Made by a program: the position numbers and the translations under genes. A stretch of DNA of 64,000 bases, from assembly GCA_016932965.1 (NCBI GenBank), contig JAFGBW010000103.1, forward strand, positions 2,615-66,614, in the 5' to 3' direction. The DNA comes from Candidatus Auribacterota bacterium (GTDB lineage Bacteria > Auribacterota > JAFGBW01). Positions 18,022 through 55,580 of the stretch are shown piece after piece (the first letter of the stretch is position 1; every line of letters starts with the position of its first letter). The notes under the pieces were generated by a model. It made no database searches. It was not told the DNA's origin and worked only from the letters and a program-made list of their open reading frames with translations.

Positions 18022-18196
18022 TCCTGAATGGTGAAGGGTTGATGGTTGCTAGTGGGTGGCTGTTAGTGAATAGTGAGGGGAATATATCTTGATTTATTAA
18101 CGCCTTAGAAAGAATTTAATACGGCTCCGGCAAATGAATACATGCATTTTAAAGGTCATTAGCCTGCGGGTATAACTGGAGCATATTTAAATATTT

Positions 18197-18540
18197 AATT
18201 AATCCGGTATATCACCGCCACAGGATTTGGACTAGCAAAGTTTGACAATTCCGTGAATGCTAAGAGGAATAATATCACCACAGAGAGGACACGGAGAGCA
18301 CGGAGAAATCATCATTGTGAGTTTTGAGGGTTTAGTTATGAATTGAATTGATCGAATTTCATTTGAATTTTGAAATTCAACACCTATAACTTTTTTTACC
18401 CTCCGTGCTCTCCGTGTCCTCTGTGGCAGAAAAAAAATGGAAATATTTTATACAGTATATTTCATTAAAATTGATCGCTTTGAGAGGTTCACATTTCAAG
18501 CCACCGGCTCTGCCGGTGGTAGTTGACTGCCCCAGTAATA
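18197..18540 (+). repeat. composite intergenic repeat element, copy A (5' module + 30-bp inverted-repeat hairpin + 3' module)
   Basis: 5' module TTAATTAATCCGGTA...GGATTTGGACTAGCAAAGTTTGACAAT (18197-18275). IR-L CACCACAGAGAGGACACGGAGAGCACGGAGA (18276-18306) and IR-R CCTCCGTGCTCTCCGTGTCCTCTGTGG (18399-18426) are near-perfect reverse complements around a roughly 93-bp loop. 3' module GCTTTGAGAGG...CCACCGGCTCTGCCGGTGG...AGTTGACTG is shared with copies B, C and E. Confidence 0.65.
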
Positions 18541-18852
18541 ATTTATCCTGTCTAAAAAATTTATATTCCCATTCCTCTGCGCCTCAGCGTCTCTGCGGGA
18601 GTCCTTCTTTATCTTGCGGGCGTATGCGACCAGTTCCTTTCTCCGTGTTCTGTCGTGAAAAATAGATATAAATCCAATGAGTCAGTAGAAATGTTTGCTC
18701 TTTATTATGATCTCATGAAATGCTTAGATGAGGAGGGGGGTAATTTTATTTTTGCGTTACGGGAAAAATTTTGCTTTTTATATCAGCAAATGGATTCATT
18801 TTTAGTGATAGGTTAATAAATTCAAGAGACATTAACCCGGAAGGATCAGAAC

Positions 18853-22343: not shown

Positions 22344-22347
22344 AGTT

Positions 22348-22660
22348 TTAATTAATCCGGTAAACCACCACCATTGGTTTTGGACTAGTCAAGTTTGACA
22401 GATGAGTAAGTATTTTTAAAAAATTTTCACCACGAAGGGTAAAAAGAGTTATTGGTGTTGAGTTTACATTTTATTTATTAACTCATGACTCAAAATTTTT
22501 CTCATTTTTTCGTGCTCTTCGTGTCCTTAGTGGTAAAATAAAAATATTTAACTAGAGAATAATATGAATGTTATGCCATATTCAGTGGCTTAATATGAGG
22601 AGGCTTTGAGCCGGGAATATTTTCAAGTCTTCACCTCTGGTGGAGATAACTGACTCAAAG
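22348..22660 (+). repeat. composite intergenic repeat element, copy B (between sufB and sufC)
   Basis: Starts 4 bp after the sufB stop with TTAATTAATCCGGTAAACCACC...GGTTTTGGACTAGTCAAGTTTGACAG. Degenerate IR arms CACCACGAAGG (22427) and CGTGCTCTTCGTGTCCTTAGTGG (22511-22538). 3' module ATGCCATATTCAGTGGC...GGCTTTGAGCCGGGAATATTTTCAAG...CACCTCTGGTGGAGATAACTGACTCAAAG. Confidence 0.6.
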
Positions 22661-43936: not shown

Positions 43937-44348
43937 CCCGCTTAAGGATAACCTTTTTTTTTTGATATCAGGAGTGGTTATTTTTTTTCTTGCCAGGTTT
44001 TGGTGGCCGTTTTCCGAATGGATCAACGGCTGGATACCCGGTTTGTTGAAATGCCGGTTTTATGAAATGACCGGTTTTCCCTGTATCACCTGCGGTGGTG
44101 TCCGCTCAGCCTATCATTTTGTCCGCGGATCCTGGCTGGATTCGTTCAATCAAAATGCCGGAGTTTTTTTTACGCTTTTCATGGTGTTCTTTGTCATGAT
44201 CCAGTCCATTTACGGCCTGATCAGAAAAGTACCTGTTAGAACAGGGTTATTTTTAAATAATACCCTTTTATTTTGTCTGGCCTGTGTTTTTTTGATTCAT
44301 TGGATAATTAAAATCGTTCAGTCTATTTTTTTTAGTCTTTCGGGTTAA
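43926..44348 (+). CDS. DUF2752-family small membrane protein
   Basis: 140 aa; CITCGGVRSAYHF matches the DUF2752 CxxCGxTR motif; 3-4 TM helices. Confidence 0.5.
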   Translation: MKSNPLKDNLFFLISGVVIFFLARFWWPFSEWINGWIPGLLKCRFYEMTGFPCITCGGVRSAYHFVRGSWLDSFNQNAGVFFTLFMVFFVMIQSIYGLIRKVPVRTGLFLNNTLLFCLACVFLIHWIIKIVQSIFFSLSG

Positions 44349-44351
44349 TTT

Positions 44352-44362
44352 TCACCACGAAG
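44352..44362 (+). repeat. fragment of repeat IR-arm (TTTTCACCACGAAGG), copy G
   Basis: 18-mer nearly identical to the left-arm variant of copy B (ttttcaccacgaaggGta vs ttttcaccacgaaggAta); lies between the DUF2752 gene stop and the lplA-like start. Confidence 0.35.
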
Positions 44363-44369
44363 GATAGGG

Positions 44370-45071
44370 ATGAGTGTCATGCAGGCAAACAGAATTTATT
44401 TTTACCCTTATGAAACGCAAGAATTGAATTTCAACATGGCTCTGGATGAAGTTCTTCTGGATGAATCCATTGAAAAAGGCACGGCTTTTTTCCGTTGTTA
44501 CGGTTTTTCTTTTCGGTCCTGTTCCATCGGGTATTTTCAGGCTCATTCATTCCTTGATCCTCATGATGAAAGCTGGACGAGAAGACTCACAGGCGGAGGC
44601 AGAGTGGATCATGGCGAGGACATGGTCATTTCCCTGAGTTTTCACCGGCTTTCAGGCAATAGAAGCATTTTAGTTTTATATCGTGACATTCATGCTGCCA
44701 TCAGGGCCGTGCTGATAAAAGCAGGTATTCCGGCTGAAGTGTTTAAAGAGAGATCCCAGCCTTTGGTTTCCAGGAATTATAGGTGTTTCGATGCTCCTGT
44801 TGAACAGGATCTGGGCATAGAGGGAAGAAAAATAGCGGGAGGTGCGCTTTATCGCAGAAAGGATTGGTTTTTATATCAGGGGTCCATTCAGACGGATCAT
44901 GACATGATTTCTGTATTGTCCGGCAATGAAATGAAGAGACAATTTGTAGACAAGATAGGGGGCTTGTCAGACAGGCTTTCAGAAGAAGTTTTGATTCCTG
45001 AAAAACTGAAAGACAGGGCCCGGATTTTAGCAGGAGAAAAATACAAATCCATCCACTGGAAAATAAAATAA
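44370..45071 (+). CDS. lipoate/octanoyl protein ligase family protein (BPL_LplA_LipB catalytic domain only)
   Basis: 233 aa; NMALDEVLL and RRLTGGGRVDHGEDM align to LplA NLAVEE and RRSSGGGAVFHDLGN; the lysine-containing region KIAGGALYRR follows. Confidence 0.55.
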   Translation: MSVMQANRIYFYPYETQELNFNMALDEVLLDESIEKGTAFFRCYGFSFRSCSIGYFQAHSFLDPHDESWTRRLTGGGRVDHGEDMVISLSFHRLSGNRSILVLYRDIHAAIRAVLIKAGIPAEVFKERSQPLVSRNYRCFDAPVEQDLGIEGRKIAGGALYRRKDWFLYQGSIQTDHDMISVLSGNEMKRQFVDKIGGLSDRLSEEVLIPEKLKDRARILAGEKYKSIHWKIK

Positions 45072-45080
45072 AACGGGATT

Positions 45081-45430
45081 TAATCCATTAAAATACCGGC
45101 ATAGCTTTTGGACTGGTGAAGTATGACAGTGGGAGGAAATTGTTAAAAAAATTGTTCACCACGGACACGGAAAGCACGGAGGATGAGAGTAAATTTTGGG
45201 TTGTGAGTTTTATGTTATGAGTTGAAATGATGAAATCATATTTTCTCTCATGATTTAATACTGAACACTTATCAGTCTTATTCTCCGTGCTTTCCGTGGT
45301 GAAAAAATAAATGATCAAATATGCACAACAATCATGCCACTTTAAGTGGCTTTATATAAGGCTTTGAGCCGAAACCGGTTAAACTTTTCACCTTTGATAG
45401 GGTGATTGTCCAACTTTAGTGAATCTCAGG
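45081..45430 (+). repeat. composite intergenic repeat element, copy C
   Basis: 5' module TAATCCATTAAAATACCGGCATAGCTTTTGGACTGGTGAAGTATGACAG. IR-L CACCACGGACACGGAAAGCACGGAGGA (45167-45193) and IR-R TCTCCGTGCTTTCCGTGGTG (45281-45300). 3' module ATGCCACTTTAAGTGGC...GGCTTTGAGCCG...TTTTCACC. Confidence 0.6.
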
Positions 45431-51048: not shown

Positions 51049-51056
51049 AAACAATG

Positions 51057-51161
51057 AATTAATCCGGTAAACCACCCCAAGAGGATTTGAACCAGCCAAG
51101 TTGTTTGACAATTCCGGAAATTTTAAAAAAGAAATAATTTCATCACAGAGAACACAGAGAT
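51057..51161 (+). repeat. composite repeat element, copy D (5' module + degenerate left arm only)
   Basis: AATTAATCCGGTAAACCACCCCAAGAGGATTTGAACCAGCCAAGTTGTTTGACAATTCCGG...TCATCACAGAGAACACAGAGA; begins 8 bp after the ferredoxin gene stop. Confidence 0.55.
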
Positions 51162-51855: not shown

Positions 51856-52707
51856 ATGGATATTAAATTTTTCGGCCAGTATTTATTGGAAAAAAACATC
51901 ATTACTAAAGTCCAGCTTCTGGAGGCAATCACACTCCAGACCAATACCAATATTTCTTTGCCCATTCTCGCTGTCAAATTGGGTTATATCGACAAGTCCG
52001 CTCATGATAAGATCCAGCAATATCAGATCAGAAATAATCTGAGCTTCATCGAGGCAGCCAAACAACTGCAACTTATCTCTTCTGAAAAACTCGAACATCT
52101 CATTGCGAGACAAGTTTCCAATAATATCCTTCTGGGAGAAGCCCTTGTCAGAAAAAATATTCTTTCCCAGGAACAGGTTGACGAGCATTTCCGCCGTTTC
52201 AGGACAGAACAGTCTGCACTGGAACTGGAAATATTGAGTTCCATCTCATCCCACCACTATGGAGATATCATCGGTGCGTCGCTGCAGTCTTCCGTGAATC
52301 TGTTCCGTTACGCCATGGATGTTCAGCCCAGGATCGGGGCTTTTTATACCCATACTAGCAGCAGCTCTGATCAATACCCCTGGGTTGCTTTTCAGTCTCT
52401 GCAGGGAGATTATAATTTCACCTTTCATCTTTATGTGACTGAACCGCTTATATGTCAGATAGCTTCCTCACTGGTTCAAAGAAGGGTGGATGATATCAAT
52501 GAATTGTCTCTGGATGCCATGAAGGAATTTGTCAATACCATTGTCGGATATATCTGCACCACGCTTTCCATTAAAAATATAAAGGAAGAACCGACGCTGC
52601 CTGAAATCGAACGAACGGAAAAAATGATCAAAACGAATGAAATGGTAAAATTGGTGCTGCGTTTTCCTGAAGAAGTCGTTGAAATAGGGATCATCTTTCA
52701 CGAGTAA
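51856..52707 (+). CDS. tandem T2SSE_N/MshEN-like domains + CheX/CheC-like C-terminal domain protein
   Basis: 283 aa; two copies of a GspE-N-like motif (FGQYLLEKNIITKVQLLEAI; LGEALVRKNILSQEQVDEHF); C-terminus SLDAMKEFVNTIVGYICTTLS resembles CheX. Confidence 0.4.
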   Translation: MDIKFFGQYLLEKNIITKVQLLEAITLQTNTNISLPILAVKLGYIDKSAHDKIQQYQIRNNLSFIEAAKQLQLISSEKLEHLIARQVSNNILLGEALVRKNILSQEQVDEHFRRFRTEQSALELEILSSISSHHYGDIIGASLQSSVNLFRYAMDVQPRIGAFYTHTSSSSDQYPWVAFQSLQGDYNFTFHLYVTEPLICQIASSLVQRRVDDINELSLDAMKEFVNTIVGYICTTLSIKNIKEEPTLPEIERTEKMIKTNEMVKLVLRFPEEVVEIGIIFHE

Positions 52708-52725: not shown

Positions 52726-52944
52726 AGTTTATCACGGAGGACACGAAGGAATTTAAGTTATGAGTTGGAATGATGAGATTTTAACTCACAACTGACACTC
52801 AAAACTCTTTTTATCCTCTGTGGTAAAAAATTTTATCAACAGAATTTATCATTGATCATGCCACTTTGAGTGGTGTTATCCATGTGGTTTGAGCTGATAA
52901 CTATTTTCAATCCTCTGGCTCTGGCGGAAGTAACTGACTTGAGA
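52726..52944 (+). repeat. composite repeat element, copy E (IR hairpin + 3' module)
   Basis: IR-L ATCACGGAGGACACGAAGGA (52731-52750) and IR-R TCCTCTGTGGTAAAA (about 52813-52827). Loop shares GTTATGAGTTGGAATGATGAG with copy C. 3' module ATGCCACTTTGAGTGG...GGTTTGAGCTG...ATTTTCAATCCTCTGGCTCTGGCGGAAGTAACTGACTTGAG ends 8 bp before the TTG start of the rSAM gene. Confidence 0.6.
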
Positions 52945-52952
52945 TCTGTAAG

Positions 52953-53924
52953 TTGATATTTGAAGATTATTATAGCAATCTCCTTCATCATTGCGCTCTT
53001 TGTCCCAGGCAGTGCCACGCTGATCGGTTTTCTTCAAAATTGGGTTATTGCAACACGGGGGCGGTCTTTCCTGTTTCCTCGATCTGCCTTCATCATGGTG
53101 AAGAACCGGTCATTTCCGGAAAAAGAGGCATCTGTAATATTTTTTTCAGTCATTGCAATCTCCAGTGCCGTTATTGCCAGAATTATCAGATCAGCAGCAA
53201 TGTCATTGGGGTTGGCCCAATAGTGTTGGAATTGGAGGAAATCATTACGCAACTGGAGGTGCATTTAAAAAATAAGATTACCCGAATCGGGTTTGTTTCG
53301 CCGTCCCATGTTCTGCCTCAGGTGGAAATCATCATGAAGAGGCTGCGTGAAAGGAATTGGAATCCCGTTTTTGTCTATAATACGAACGGCTATGACAGGA
53401 GTGAACAGATACGGTCCCTGGAAGGGCGGATCCAGGTTTATCTGCCTGACCTCAAATATACGGATGGATCTGTCTCCAAAGCCTATTCGGATGCAGCCGA
53501 TTATCCTTTTTATGCGAAAGAGGCCATTAAAGAGATGTTTCGTCAAAAAGGGAGTGAAATCATTCTGGATGAACAAGGAGAAATTTTATCAGGCTTGATC
53601 ATTCGCCATCTGGTTATTCCCGGGCAGGTTGAAAACAGTATAGCCTGCCTTCGTTTCATTGCAGAGGAACTTTCCCCTGATGTGTCAGTTTCCCTCATGT
53701 CCCAGTATCATCCGGTGCCGGCCACGATCAAACACAGATGTCTTGGAAGGACTCTCAACAAAGAAGAATATGCCCAAGTCAGGCATGAGCTTGAAAAACT
53801 GGGAATGCAAAACGGCTGGATCCAGGAATTGGAAAGTTCCGCCTATTATTTTCCTGATTTCAACCGGCCCCATCCGTTTGAAGAAAAAAATCACCACGGA
53901 GGACGCGGAGAGCACGGAGAATAA
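52953..53924 (+). CDS. radical SAM protein, PflX/YjjW-like (pyruvate formate-lyase activating enzyme-related)
   Basis: 323 aa; CALCPRQCHADR...GYC...HHGEEPVISG...FFSHCNLQCRYCQN matches the PflX-family N-terminus and CX3CX2C; TTG start; the last 12 codons and stop are contributed by repeat fragment F. Confidence 0.65.
   Translation: MIFEDYYSNLLHHCALCPRQCHADRFSSKLGYCNTGAVFPVSSICLHHGEEPVISGKRGICNIFFSHCNLQCRYCQNYQISSNVIGVGPIVLELEEIITQLEVHLKNKITRIGFVSPSHVLPQVEIIMKRLRERNWNPVFVYNTNGYDRSEQIRSLEGRIQVYLPDLKYTDGSVSKAYSDAADYPFYAKEAIKEMFRQKGSEIILDEQGEILSGLIIRHLVIPGQVENSIACLRFIAEELSPDVSVSLMSQYHPVPATIKHRCLGRTLNKEEYAQVRHELEKLGMQNGWIQELESSAYYFPDFNRPHPFEEKNHHGGRGEHGE
53892..53920 (+). repeat. repeat IR-arm fragment, copy F (embedded in the 3' end of the rSAM CDS)
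   Basis: CACCACGGAGGACGCGGAGAGCACGGAGA is 26/29 identical to the IR-L consensus; it encodes the HHGGRGEHGE-stop tail of the rSAM protein. Confidence 0.6.
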
Positions 53925-53927
53925 GAG

Positions 53928-55580
53928 TTATTCCTCGAATTCATCTGATATTTTTGTGATATAATCAACGATGAATCTTCCGGCAAGATCATGGGGGGAA
54001 ACGACGGCATCGGCTCCGGCATGGATGAGTATTTCTTCCTGTTCCTCTCCGTCTCCCGTGGCGATCACTCTTGCCTTTGGATTCAGGGTTTTACAATTCC
54101 TGACTAGGCTGTAATTATTCGTGCCTTTGAGCAGAACATCCGGGATGGATGAAATGATGATTTGCGCATTGGCTATGTCCGCATGCTGGAGTGTATCGGT
54201 ATGGCTGATATCCCCGAATACGGCTTCGATATGACGGGTTTTGAGCTCGCGGATCAATTCCATGTTGAAATCAATCACTCGGATTTTTTTCAGAAGCTCA
54301 GGACAGGTGTCCTCCAGGATATTGATAATAGCCCTGCCGCCCCGGTGCATACCCAGTAACAGAATCGGACAGGATTCTTTTTGGGGTTTGATATGATGTT
54401 CCTCCAGAAACTTGATCCATTTGTTTTTTTTCAAGAAGGATTCAACCCATCCGTAAATCGTATAATTATATTTGATGAAATAGGAGGAAAGAATCGAACT
54501 GGCCGCCATGGTATAGATGAGAATGTCCAGGATTTTCTGATCGATATGCTTCAATTGGATACCGATGAGCGCAATGACGAGTGAAAATTCGCTGATCTGG
54601 GAAAGATTAAGCGATGTGATGAAGGCCGTTCTGGGTCCTGAACCTTGCATCATCATGATGGGAATGAGACTTATAAAACGGGTAGTCATGATGAAAAGCG
54701 TCAGGAGGAGACTGTAATAGATGATGGTTTCATCAGGACGGGTGATTTTCATGCCTAGTGAGACAAAGAAAAGAACCAGGAAAAAGTCCCTCAATGGCTG
54801 GGTTTTGGCCGTGATGTGAATGCTGTAGGGGAAGGAGGAAATGGAGATGCCAGCGATCAAGGCTCCCATCTCAATAGAGAGCCCTAAAAGGCCCGCAAGC
54901 CAGGAGACCAGTGCGCACCAGCCGATGGAAATGGACAAAACCATTTCCGGCGAATGGTGAACGGAAGCGCAGATTTTTTTCAGTACGTATTTGCTGAAAA
55001 AAAAGGCAAAGGTCACGAGCAGGGTGCTCTTGATGACAGCGAGTCCAATGATCCGGAAGTCGAAATGGTTGAAATTGGGCTGGAAGGCTAATATCAGGAT
55101 GGCCCATAAGTCCTGAATGATCAGGATGCCAACAGAAAATTGCCCGTGGAGCGTATCCAGCTCAAACTTGTCGTTTAAAGCCTTGACCACAATGGCAGTG
55201 CTGCTGAGGGCGCATAAAAGGGAAAGATACAGAATATTCATCGTGTTATTTTTCCCGAACAGGACAAGGAAAAAAGGAATCCCGAGTAGCACACACAGGA
55301 CAAACTGACCGATTCCCGCTGTCAGCAGTCGTTTCCCGGCACGAATGAGAGAGGCGATATGAAGTTCCAATCCTGTGATGAAAAGAAGCAGAATAAGGCC
55401 GATTTCAGAAATGATTTCAATGTTGACCTGATTTTCTATCAATTTGCATCCGATCGGGCCGACAATGACTCCGGTGATCAGGTAACCGAGGAGGATAGGC
55501 TGTTTGAACCGGAAACTGATGAGGCCGACTGCAGCAGCGATGATGATGATGGTTCCGATGTCTTCGATAATGTGGTGCAT
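53928..55580 (-). CDS. Kef-type cation:proton antiporter with C-terminal RCK/TrkA-N domain
   Basis: 550 aa; about 12 TM Na+/H+ exchanger-like core; C-terminal Rossmann ILLLGMHRGGRAIINIL...FGDISHTDTLQHADIANAQIII. Confidence 0.8.
   Translation of the reverse strand: MHHIIEDIGTIIIIAAAVGLISFRFKQPILLGYLITGVIVGPIGCKLIENQVNIEIISEIGLILLLFITGLELHIASLIRAGKRLLTAGIGQFVLCVLLGIPFFLVLFGKNNTMNILYLSLLCALSSTAIVVKALNDKFELDTLHGQFSVGILIIQDLWAILILAFQPNFNHFDFRIIGLAVIKSTLLVTFAFFFSKYVLKKICASVHHSPEMVLSISIGWCALVSWLAGLLGLSIEMGALIAGISISSFPYSIHITAKTQPLRDFFLVLFFVSLGMKITRPDETIIYYSLLLTLFIMTTRFISLIPIMMMQGSGPRTAFITSLNLSQISEFSLVIALIGIQLKHIDQKILDILIYTMAASSILSSYFIKYNYTIYGWVESFLKKNKWIKFLEEHHIKPQKESCPILLLGMHRGGRAIINILEDTCPELLKKIRVIDFNMELIRELKTRHIEAVFGDISHTDTLQHADIANAQIIISSIPDVLLKGTNNYSLVRNCKTLNPKARVIATGDGEEQEEILIHAGADAVVSPHDLAGRFIVDYITKISDEFEE

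Follow-up and report, generated by a model that had tools for sequence, protein, structure and literature searches.

A gene for a radical S-adenosylmethionine (radical SAM) protein, located in a 64,000-nucleotide stretch of contig JAFGBW010000103.1 from a Candidatus Auribacterota bacterium (assembly GCA_016932965.1; the whole stretch is hereafter called the window), probably had its extreme 3' end, and that end alone, rebuilt by one arm of a dispersed hairpin repeat, the N-terminus being left intact. The last 12 codons of the gene consist of a run of seven A residues (A7, 53884-53890) and a solo arm, which is built from three CACGGAGRR nonamers. The first-pass annotation of this DNA had proposed that repeat insertion remodelled the gene at both termini. 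The C-terminal part of this proposal was borne out by our analysis, and the N-terminal part was not.

The C-terminal tail of the radical SAM protein coincides with a repeat arm

A search of 5.8 billion proteins returned thousands of relatives of the radical SAM protein, of which 119 homologues were taken for the alignment (120 sequences with the query). In this alignment, an analysis that the first-pass annotation had recommended, the homology ceased at ...HPFEE (E311, base 53885), where the relatives stop. The homologues have a median of 2 residues (range 1-11) after the invariant F309 of the ...P-x-F motif, and the window protein, with 14, has the longest C-terminus of all. Moreover, a HGG/HGE-like tail was absent from all 119 aligned homologues. 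The predicted protein ends in ...FEEKNHHGGRGEHGE, and in the AlphaFold model the predicted local distance difference test (pLDDT) score fell below 50 solely at residues 313-323, which correspond to the repeat-coded tail. As modelled, the tail is most likely a disordered appendage outside the fold and neutral for the protein.

Positions 53892-53921 comprise the in-frame codons CAC CAC GGA GGA CGC GGA GAG CAC GGA GAA, which encode HHGGRGEHGE, and are followed by the TAA stop, in agreement with what the first-pass annotation had stated about this fragment. When the window was scanned with a 16-mer arm pattern allowing at most two mismatches, 7 matches were found, whereas 0.06 were expected. The arm at the end of the gene (fragment F) is identical to the arm of c1, the best-preserved local copy of the repeat, at 22 of 23 and 27 of 31 positions, and it equals the consensus of 205 arms save for one position, the variant found there (GGACGCGG) being common in other genomes. 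The stop codon also appears to be repeat-derived, as previously suggested, because in the window the last nonamer of four other arms is likewise followed by TAA in this register and because the likeness to the local copies runs past the stop to about position 53932 (TAA, a 3-nt gap and GAGTTATT, versus TAAAAAGAGTTATTGG in copy c2).

A partner arm to fragment F was not present at the locus. The fold computed around fragment F (-24.9 kcal/mol, z = -0.5) was no better than that of shuffled sequences, whereas the full copies reached z values of -5 to -10, and the lack of a hairpin fold thus indicates that fragment F is a solo arm. In addition, if the A7 run is lengthened or shortened by one base, the open reading frame (ORF) still reads through the arm (alternative frame 53659-53964, by reading of the sequence), so the conclusion of read-through is independent of the length of the homopolymer.

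Several observations weigh against this interpretation. The match past the stop of the radical SAM gene (GAGTTATT) comprises only 8 nt following a 3-nt gap. Translation of the tail is inferred, as is its neutrality, and the source is a metagenome-assembled genome (MAG), from whose assembly the junction is taken. The orthologous locus of a close relative was not found in the searched collections, where the best homologue was 61% identical, and therefore the ancestral state is deduced from distant homologues only. On contig L193, from a relative whose antiporter is 67% identical, another gene occupies the convergent position and the arm is absent. The contig of homologue P0003 showed no synteny with the window locus.

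Possible origin of the tail

A solo arm of the dispersed hairpin repeat occupies the site of the relatives' stop codon, directly 3' of ...HPFEE. The arm is a run of CACGGAGRR nonamers and is open in all forward frames, and since fragment F starts with ATCACC instead of the TTAACC or TTGAACC seen elsewhere, its outer edge provides no in-frame stop. Given an arm that is stop-free in the forward frames and an outer edge without an in-frame stop, translation would pass through the A-run and the nonamers (KN-HHGGRGEHGE) and end at the TAA, which lies immediately within the repeat.

Such a junction could have been formed by insertion or recombination of the arm onto the native stop. It could also be the result of a point mutation that removed the stop before an arm already abutting the gene (e.g., GAA GAA TAA AAT changed to GAA GAA AAA AAT). 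Copy c1 shows an abutting arm of this kind, its junction reading GAG GAA TAA TAT CACCAC, and that of fragment F reads GAA GAA AAA AAT CACCAC. We rate the two routes as about equally likely.

Alternative explanations

According to the first-pass annotation, the upstream repeat might have cut the N-terminus of the protein in addition to the replacement of the C-terminus by the 3' fragment. A degenerate composite copy of the repeat (c5, previously called repeat E) does lie directly upstream of the gene. Its module C ends at 52940, i.e., 12 nt and not 8 bp before the TTG start codon. This proximity, compared with the 77-340 nt that separate the other copies from the next start, and a TTG start without a Shine-Dalgarno sequence would be compatible with a truncation. 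At the same time, the number of residues before the first Cys (C14), which is 13 and not 14 as counted earlier, falls within the spread of the family: both the median and the mode of the 119 homologues are 15 (range 3-87), and 11 of the 119 have 13 or fewer, contrary to the premise that family members usually possess a longer N-terminus. The N-terminus aligns with the family end to end, reaching residue 1 and falling only two residues under the mode; the column of L11 is nearly invariant, and residues 2-12 are confidently modelled by AlphaFold as a helix. Because of the in-frame TGA at 52935-52937, the frame could be extended upstream by no more than 5 codons. The TTG start without a Shine-Dalgarno sequence is unremarkable in this DNA, since 28 of the 42 crude gene calls in the window lack such a sequence and 9 of the 42 begin with TTG. 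It is therefore very improbable that both termini were remodelled, and copy c5 leaves the coding sequence untouched, its sole effect being a shorter 5' untranslated spacer, of 12 nt. That the gene is bracketed by repeats is true, but this is weak evidence, given five composite copies in 35 kb of mostly co-directional genes and a G+C content like that of the neighbours. Since the G+C content is the same as that of the neighbouring genes, nothing points to a mobilised radical SAM gene, and its foreign origin was rejected.

The junction could also have been produced during assembly if the real genome carried a full arm-loop-arm after the gene that was collapsed or mis-joined in the MAG, in which case the 3-nt spacing to the convergent gene and the exact stop would be unreal. 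The sequence is indeed a MAG contig, inverted repeats are classic assembly break points, fragment F is the sole near-consensus solo arm in the window, and the 3-nt convergent gap is unusually tight. Yet the junction between the gene and the arm lies in unique sequence with no stop ahead of the arm, and thus the tail would exist even then, only the stop and the spacing being changed. Solo arms are also common elsewhere, complete genomes and viral contigs included, and a repeat of 31 nt is shorter than the final k-mers of most assemblers, which makes us regard an artefact as unlikely. As for the tail itself, it might be ancestral or selected, for instance for metal binding by an Fe-S enzyme, with the likeness to the repeat being secondary; three His and two Glu residues among 10 could, speculatively, bind metal. 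We consider this extremely improbable, because none of the 119 homologues carries such a tail, its DNA matches arms located in non-coding intergenic sequence of the window genome and of many others, a different frame of the arm is used in other genes, where it gives TEDTESTE, and the tail is predicted to be disordered. The rebuilding of only the extreme 3' end of the gene by a repeat arm is thus the interpretation that we retain.

The body of the protein

Apart from the tail, the gene is complete and probably functional, encoding a candidate enzyme similar to pyruvate formate lyase (PFL) activases of the 'PflX'/COG1313 type. The protein contains an N-terminal Cys motif (C14/C17/C21/C33) and a CxxxCxxC motif at C68/C72/C75. 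The residues C14, C17, P18, C21 and C33 were invariant in the homologue alignment, and C68-N-L-Q-C72-R-Y-C75 was invariant across the 120 aligned sequences, as expected of a member of the radical SAM superfamily. All invariant columns of the family were retained in the window protein, and its score with the Pfam model PF04055 (Radical_SAM), 30.9 bits, was just above the cut-off of 29.5. The best relatives (self excluded) were 53-61% identical over 93-97% of the length and contained 301-385 aa; they include proteins named 'putative pyruvate formate lyase activating enzyme', which have the N-terminal CxxCPRxC...C motif in common with the window protein. The cut-offs of the NCBIfam models TIGR02493 (PFLA; 17.9 versus 231.75) and TIGR02494 (PFLE_PFLC; 21.4 versus 174.35) were not reached. 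The libraries searched did not return a dedicated model for the COG1313/'PflX' group, and the label comes from source names only.

The AlphaFold model built from the 120-sequence alignment had a mean pLDDT of 92.8 and a predicted template modelling (TM) score of 0.91, with pLDDT exceeding 85 for nearly the whole chain. The best PDB match in Foldseek was the Escherichia coli PFL activating enzyme (PFL-AE) PflA (3c8f, 8fo0; E = 3e-9, TM 0.58/0.74, 13-16% identity), and SkfB, viperin and LIAS came next, in line with a partial TIM-barrel fold. A sequence search for solved relatives returned only E. coli PflA (E ~3e-4). The window protein resembles PflA in its partial barrel, typical of radical SAM proteins, and in the CxxxCxxC motif for the cluster, but it is about 70 residues longer and has the additional N-terminal four-Cys motif. 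The term 'PflX-like' is a fair label, denoting a PFL-AE-like protein and not a demonstrated PFL activase. The effect of the repeat on this gene thus appears small, as the enzyme looks intact and gains a predicted disordered tail of 12 residues.

A public counterpart of the protein (P0001; NCBI, 322 aa) is identical but begins with MFED... at ATA 52956, one codon after the TTG, and this record carries the C-terminal tail.

Distribution of the arm in bacteria and phages

The arm was searched for in one genome per GTDB species with the exact query GGACRCGGAGAGCACGGAG, which yielded at least 118 loci (L001-L118). Among the 118 loci listed, 100 contained the extended 27-mer with no more than four mismatches, and 18 were without the extended arm. 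By our own estimate, about nine exact matches to a 19-mer are expected by chance. Several exact matches inside long ORFs without the ACCAC extension (records of Actinomycetota, Deinococcus and Clostridia) were rejected as chance matches. The arm of approximately 30 nt (TTnACCACGGAGGACACGGAGAGCACGGAG) was nearly identical in at least eight phyla, and few of the non-coding elements traceable across phyla in this analysis are as conserved in sequence. The groups represented among the matches listed were Verrucomicrobiota, Planctomycetota, Acidobacteriota, Beta-, Gamma- and Deltaproteobacteria, Spirochaetota, Bacteroidota, Gemmatimonadota, Armatimonadota, Chloroflexota, Lentisphaerota and Kiritimatiellota, and they included the isolate Chitiniphilus shinanonensis; the arm also occurs in Ca. 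Aureabacteria, the group of the window genome. When plasmids and phages were searched with BLAST, the arm was detected in plasmid records of the cultured species Bacteroides finegoldii and B. ovatus and at 14 and 8 places on two replicons of Gemmatirosa kalamazoonensis. Two further BLAST matches (H8 and H9), inside a response-regulator and a TonB-receptor gene, were weak, internal and probably due to chance. Moreover, 70 viral contigs of IMG/VR contained the exact 19-mer (L123-L192).

The consensus of the 205 arms was TT[C/A/GA]ACCACGGAGGACACGGAGAGCACGGAG[G/A]A, with conservation falling off sharply at both ends and with an outer edge of TTAACC, TTGAACC or TTCACC. Facing pairs of arms were found in 46 of the 118 listed loci, with a loop of 17-391 nt that is not conserved. 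The remaining arms were solo or, rarely, formed direct arrays. Direct tandem arrays were seen at L107 (4450-5350, minus strand; units of about 165 nt) and L099 (1-700; units of about 310 nt).

The position of the arm relative to genes was assessed for 112 arms towards which an open frame of 120 or more codons runs. In 58 of these the incoming frame stopped 0-32 nt upstream of the arm, and in 13 of the 58 the stop lay within the outer edge of the arm itself (TTAA/TTGA/TAG), as in L021, L038, L041 and an S4-domain gene of B. finegoldii (...GAA GAA TAG TTCACCAC). A further 13 of the 112 frames, including that of the window gene, read through the arm and stopped at most 18 nt after it. The forward frames of the arm contain zero stop codons, and an abutting gene without a stop of its own would thus gain about 10-14 residues. 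For example, lysS of a Terriglobia MAG (L075, 3902-5467, minus strand) reads through a solo arm, acquiring the tail TSTTEDTESTEG and ending in ...LLRPEKTSTTEDTESTEG before the stop, and of the 521 residues of this protein the last 12 lie beyond the TIGR00499 profile, which ends at residue 509. Similarly, in five viral contigs (L130, 1711-3429; L134, L151, L161 and L182) a portal gene of the lambda family (PF05136) terminates within an arm (...SLTTENTESTEGKK and stop), its TGA overlapping the ATG of the next gene (ATGA). Read in this other frame, the arm gives TEDTESTE on both LysRS and the phage portal protein. For annotation, this implies that the repeat inflates or alters the ends of ORFs. 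The arms on the viral contigs with the portal gene were all in one direction. In bacteria, solo arms showed no preferred orientation with respect to the genes beside them; a manual tally of the co-directional cases gave about 11 in the same and 11 in the opposite orientation.

We tentatively raise the possibility that the arm belongs to an undescribed pan-bacterial family of stop-codon-adjacent hairpins, a recurrent source of short C-terminal extensions across phyla. If true, such extensions would be recurrent and would include HGGHGEHGE on a radical SAM protein and TEDTESTE on LysRS and on a phage portal protein. If the arm is undescribed, its spread and its role at 3' ends, which could lie in termination, mRNA stability or translation coupling, deserve study. 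As a 3'-end element, the arm may be mobile or may have spread horizontally.

At the gathering threshold, the Rfam 15 models detected nothing in the window except a tRNA, and there was no family for the arm. With E values up to 10, only plant microRNA-precursor models matched the long hairpins, all far under the gathering scores, and these were regarded as spurious. Literature searches with the DNA of the arm, its peptides in all frames and keywords retrieved nothing relevant. The flanks of the arm are themselves inverted (L042, GATTAATCTAG...CTAGATTAATC) or palindromic (TTAA), and no direct duplication was callable; neither a target-site duplication nor a partner transposase was seen at the examined loci. 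Some edges fit the RYYYAAC/GTTRRRY pattern of the integron attC site, an identity that was rejected because TTCACC does not fit, cassette arrays were missing and the arm is conserved across phyla. A CsrA sponge, sequestration of Shine-Dalgarno sequences and an Illumina adapter were also considered, and none of these was supported.

Comparison with known repeat systems

Capture of palindromic repeats in frame is already known. Rickettsia palindromic elements (RPE) were reportedly found by Ogata and colleagues in 2000 to be inserted in frame within protein-coding genes. As in RPE, a member of a dispersed palindromic family has here become in-frame sequence of an ORF that stays intact, and the short peptide that it adds lies outside the conserved fold. 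However, RPE are whole internal insertions restricted to one genus, whereas no whole two-arm internal insertion was found here: half of the palindrome, one arm, forms the last 12 codons and replaces the stop, and the arm occurs in many phyla. REP/BIME/REPIN, ERIC and Correia (NEMIS) elements and bacterial miniature inverted-repeat transposable elements (MITEs) are short non-autonomous hairpin repeats located near the 3' ends of genes. They sometimes provide stop codons or change C-termini, and they are specific to a species or genus. Unlike these, the arm described here consists of nonamers arranged in tandem and varying in number, and the loop of 17-391 nt is not conserved. Of the traits of REP/REPIN, the position near stop codons was observed, and the restriction to a lineage was not, given the presence of the arm in at least eight phyla. 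As regards MITEs, inverted arms were present, but a direct target-site duplication was not callable. As regards intrinsic terminators, in which a G+C-rich hairpin is directly followed by a U-run, the full copies are followed by an A-run on the plus strand, and fragment F has only a 5-bp stem and TGATTTTTTT on the minus strand. The less ordinary features are the cross-phylum family of arms, the nonamer array and the placement next to stop codons.

Repeat copies and neighbouring genes in the window

The positions of the gene, the repeat copies and the adjoining features are given in Table 1.

Table 1. Features of the radical SAM locus and composite repeat copies in the window. Folds were compared with those of shuffled sequences.
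Feature	Position	Strand	Description	Fold
Radical SAM ORF	52953-53924	+	TTG start 52953, TAA 53922-53924, 323 aa (sequence and ORF list)	
Family-homologous body, M1-E311	52953-53885	+	Ends ...HPFEE (Pfam, homologue alignment, AlphaFold)	
Repeat-derived extension, K312-E323 (KNHHGGRGEHGE), and TAA (53922-53924)	53886-53924	+	Homologue lengths, pLDDT, arm match	
Fragment F, solo arm	53884-53932	+	A7 (53884-53890), TCACCAC, three nonamers CACGGAGGA / CGCGGAGAG / CACGGAGAA to 53921, interior TAA-GAGTTATT 53922-53932	
In-frame TGA (52935-52937) and sole canonical start TTG (52953-52955)	52935-52955	+	Sequence	
c1, best-preserved full copy	18194-18510	+	Module A, hairpin, module C; arms 18281-18305, 18401-18425	-67 kcal/mol, z = -9.8
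c2	22347-22645		Hairpin ~22419-22534	
c3	45075-45405		Hairpin 45161-45298	-63 kcal/mol, z = -8.0
c4, half copy	51054-51160		Arm near 51144	
c5, upstream composite copy (repeat E)	52728-52940	+	Degenerate hairpin ~52728-52827 (arms 52731-52751, 52812-52825), module C 52855-52940, module A absent	-35 kcal/mol, z = -5.1
CPA2/KefB-type cation:proton antiporter gene	53928-55580	-	Pfam Na_H_Exchanger and TrkA_N	
Weak terminator-like site	53884-53908	-	CCGCG-TCCTC-CGTGG then TGATTTTTTT; stem of 5 pairs (consensus scan)	

The antiporter gene converges on the radical SAM gene, and its stop codon (53928-53930) is 3 nt from that of the latter, inside the repeat-derived stretch covered by fragment F. The C-terminus of the antiporter is normal, with 16 residues after G534 compared with 12-31 in homologues. 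The terminator-like site on the minus strand is formed by the arm and the A-run and lies just past the antiporter stop, within the tail codons of the radical SAM gene; it is suggestive only and may be fortuitous.

Alignment of the copies showed that the composite unit of the window consists of modules A, B and C, module B being the hairpin. All five composite copies lie between plus-strand genes, and in the full copies the A-run follows on the plus (gene) strand. Module A (~54 nt, TTTAATTAATCCGG...GTTTGACA) begins 3-5 nt past the stop of the upstream gene, and module C comprises ATGCCACTTTAAGTGGC...TTTGAGCC..., after which come a small hairpin and GTAACTGACT. Module A (TTTAATTAATCCGGTAAACCACC...GGACTAG.AAGTTTGACA) occurs at 18194-18247, 22347-22400, 45075-45128 and 51054-51107; its distance of 3-5 nt from the upstream stop applies to c2-c4, and its 3' end is a -35-like TTGACA. 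The small hairpins of module C (52855-52940, 45330-45405, 22572-22645 and 18470-18510) have stems that vary in sequence yet pair, e.g., CCACCGGC/GCCGGTGG in c1 versus CACC/GGTG in c3. Module C, present here in four copies, could conceivably represent a structured leader RNA.

The gene upstream of the radical SAM gene (51856-52707) encodes a cyclic-di-GMP-binding motif of the MshE type (NF053729, two stretches in residues 6-47) together with a CheX phosphatase domain at the C-terminus. At 44345-44369, a degenerate arm of one unit (TTTTCACCACGAAGGATAGGG) immediately precedes the ATG at 44370, and its GAAGGA could serve as a ribosome-binding site. Downstream of c1, arm-like stretches in the reverse orientation were observed at 18574-18603 (CTCTGCGCCTCAGCGTCTCTGCGG, a CGCAGAG-type variant) and 18640-18662 (TTCTCCGTGTTCTGTCGTGAAAAA).

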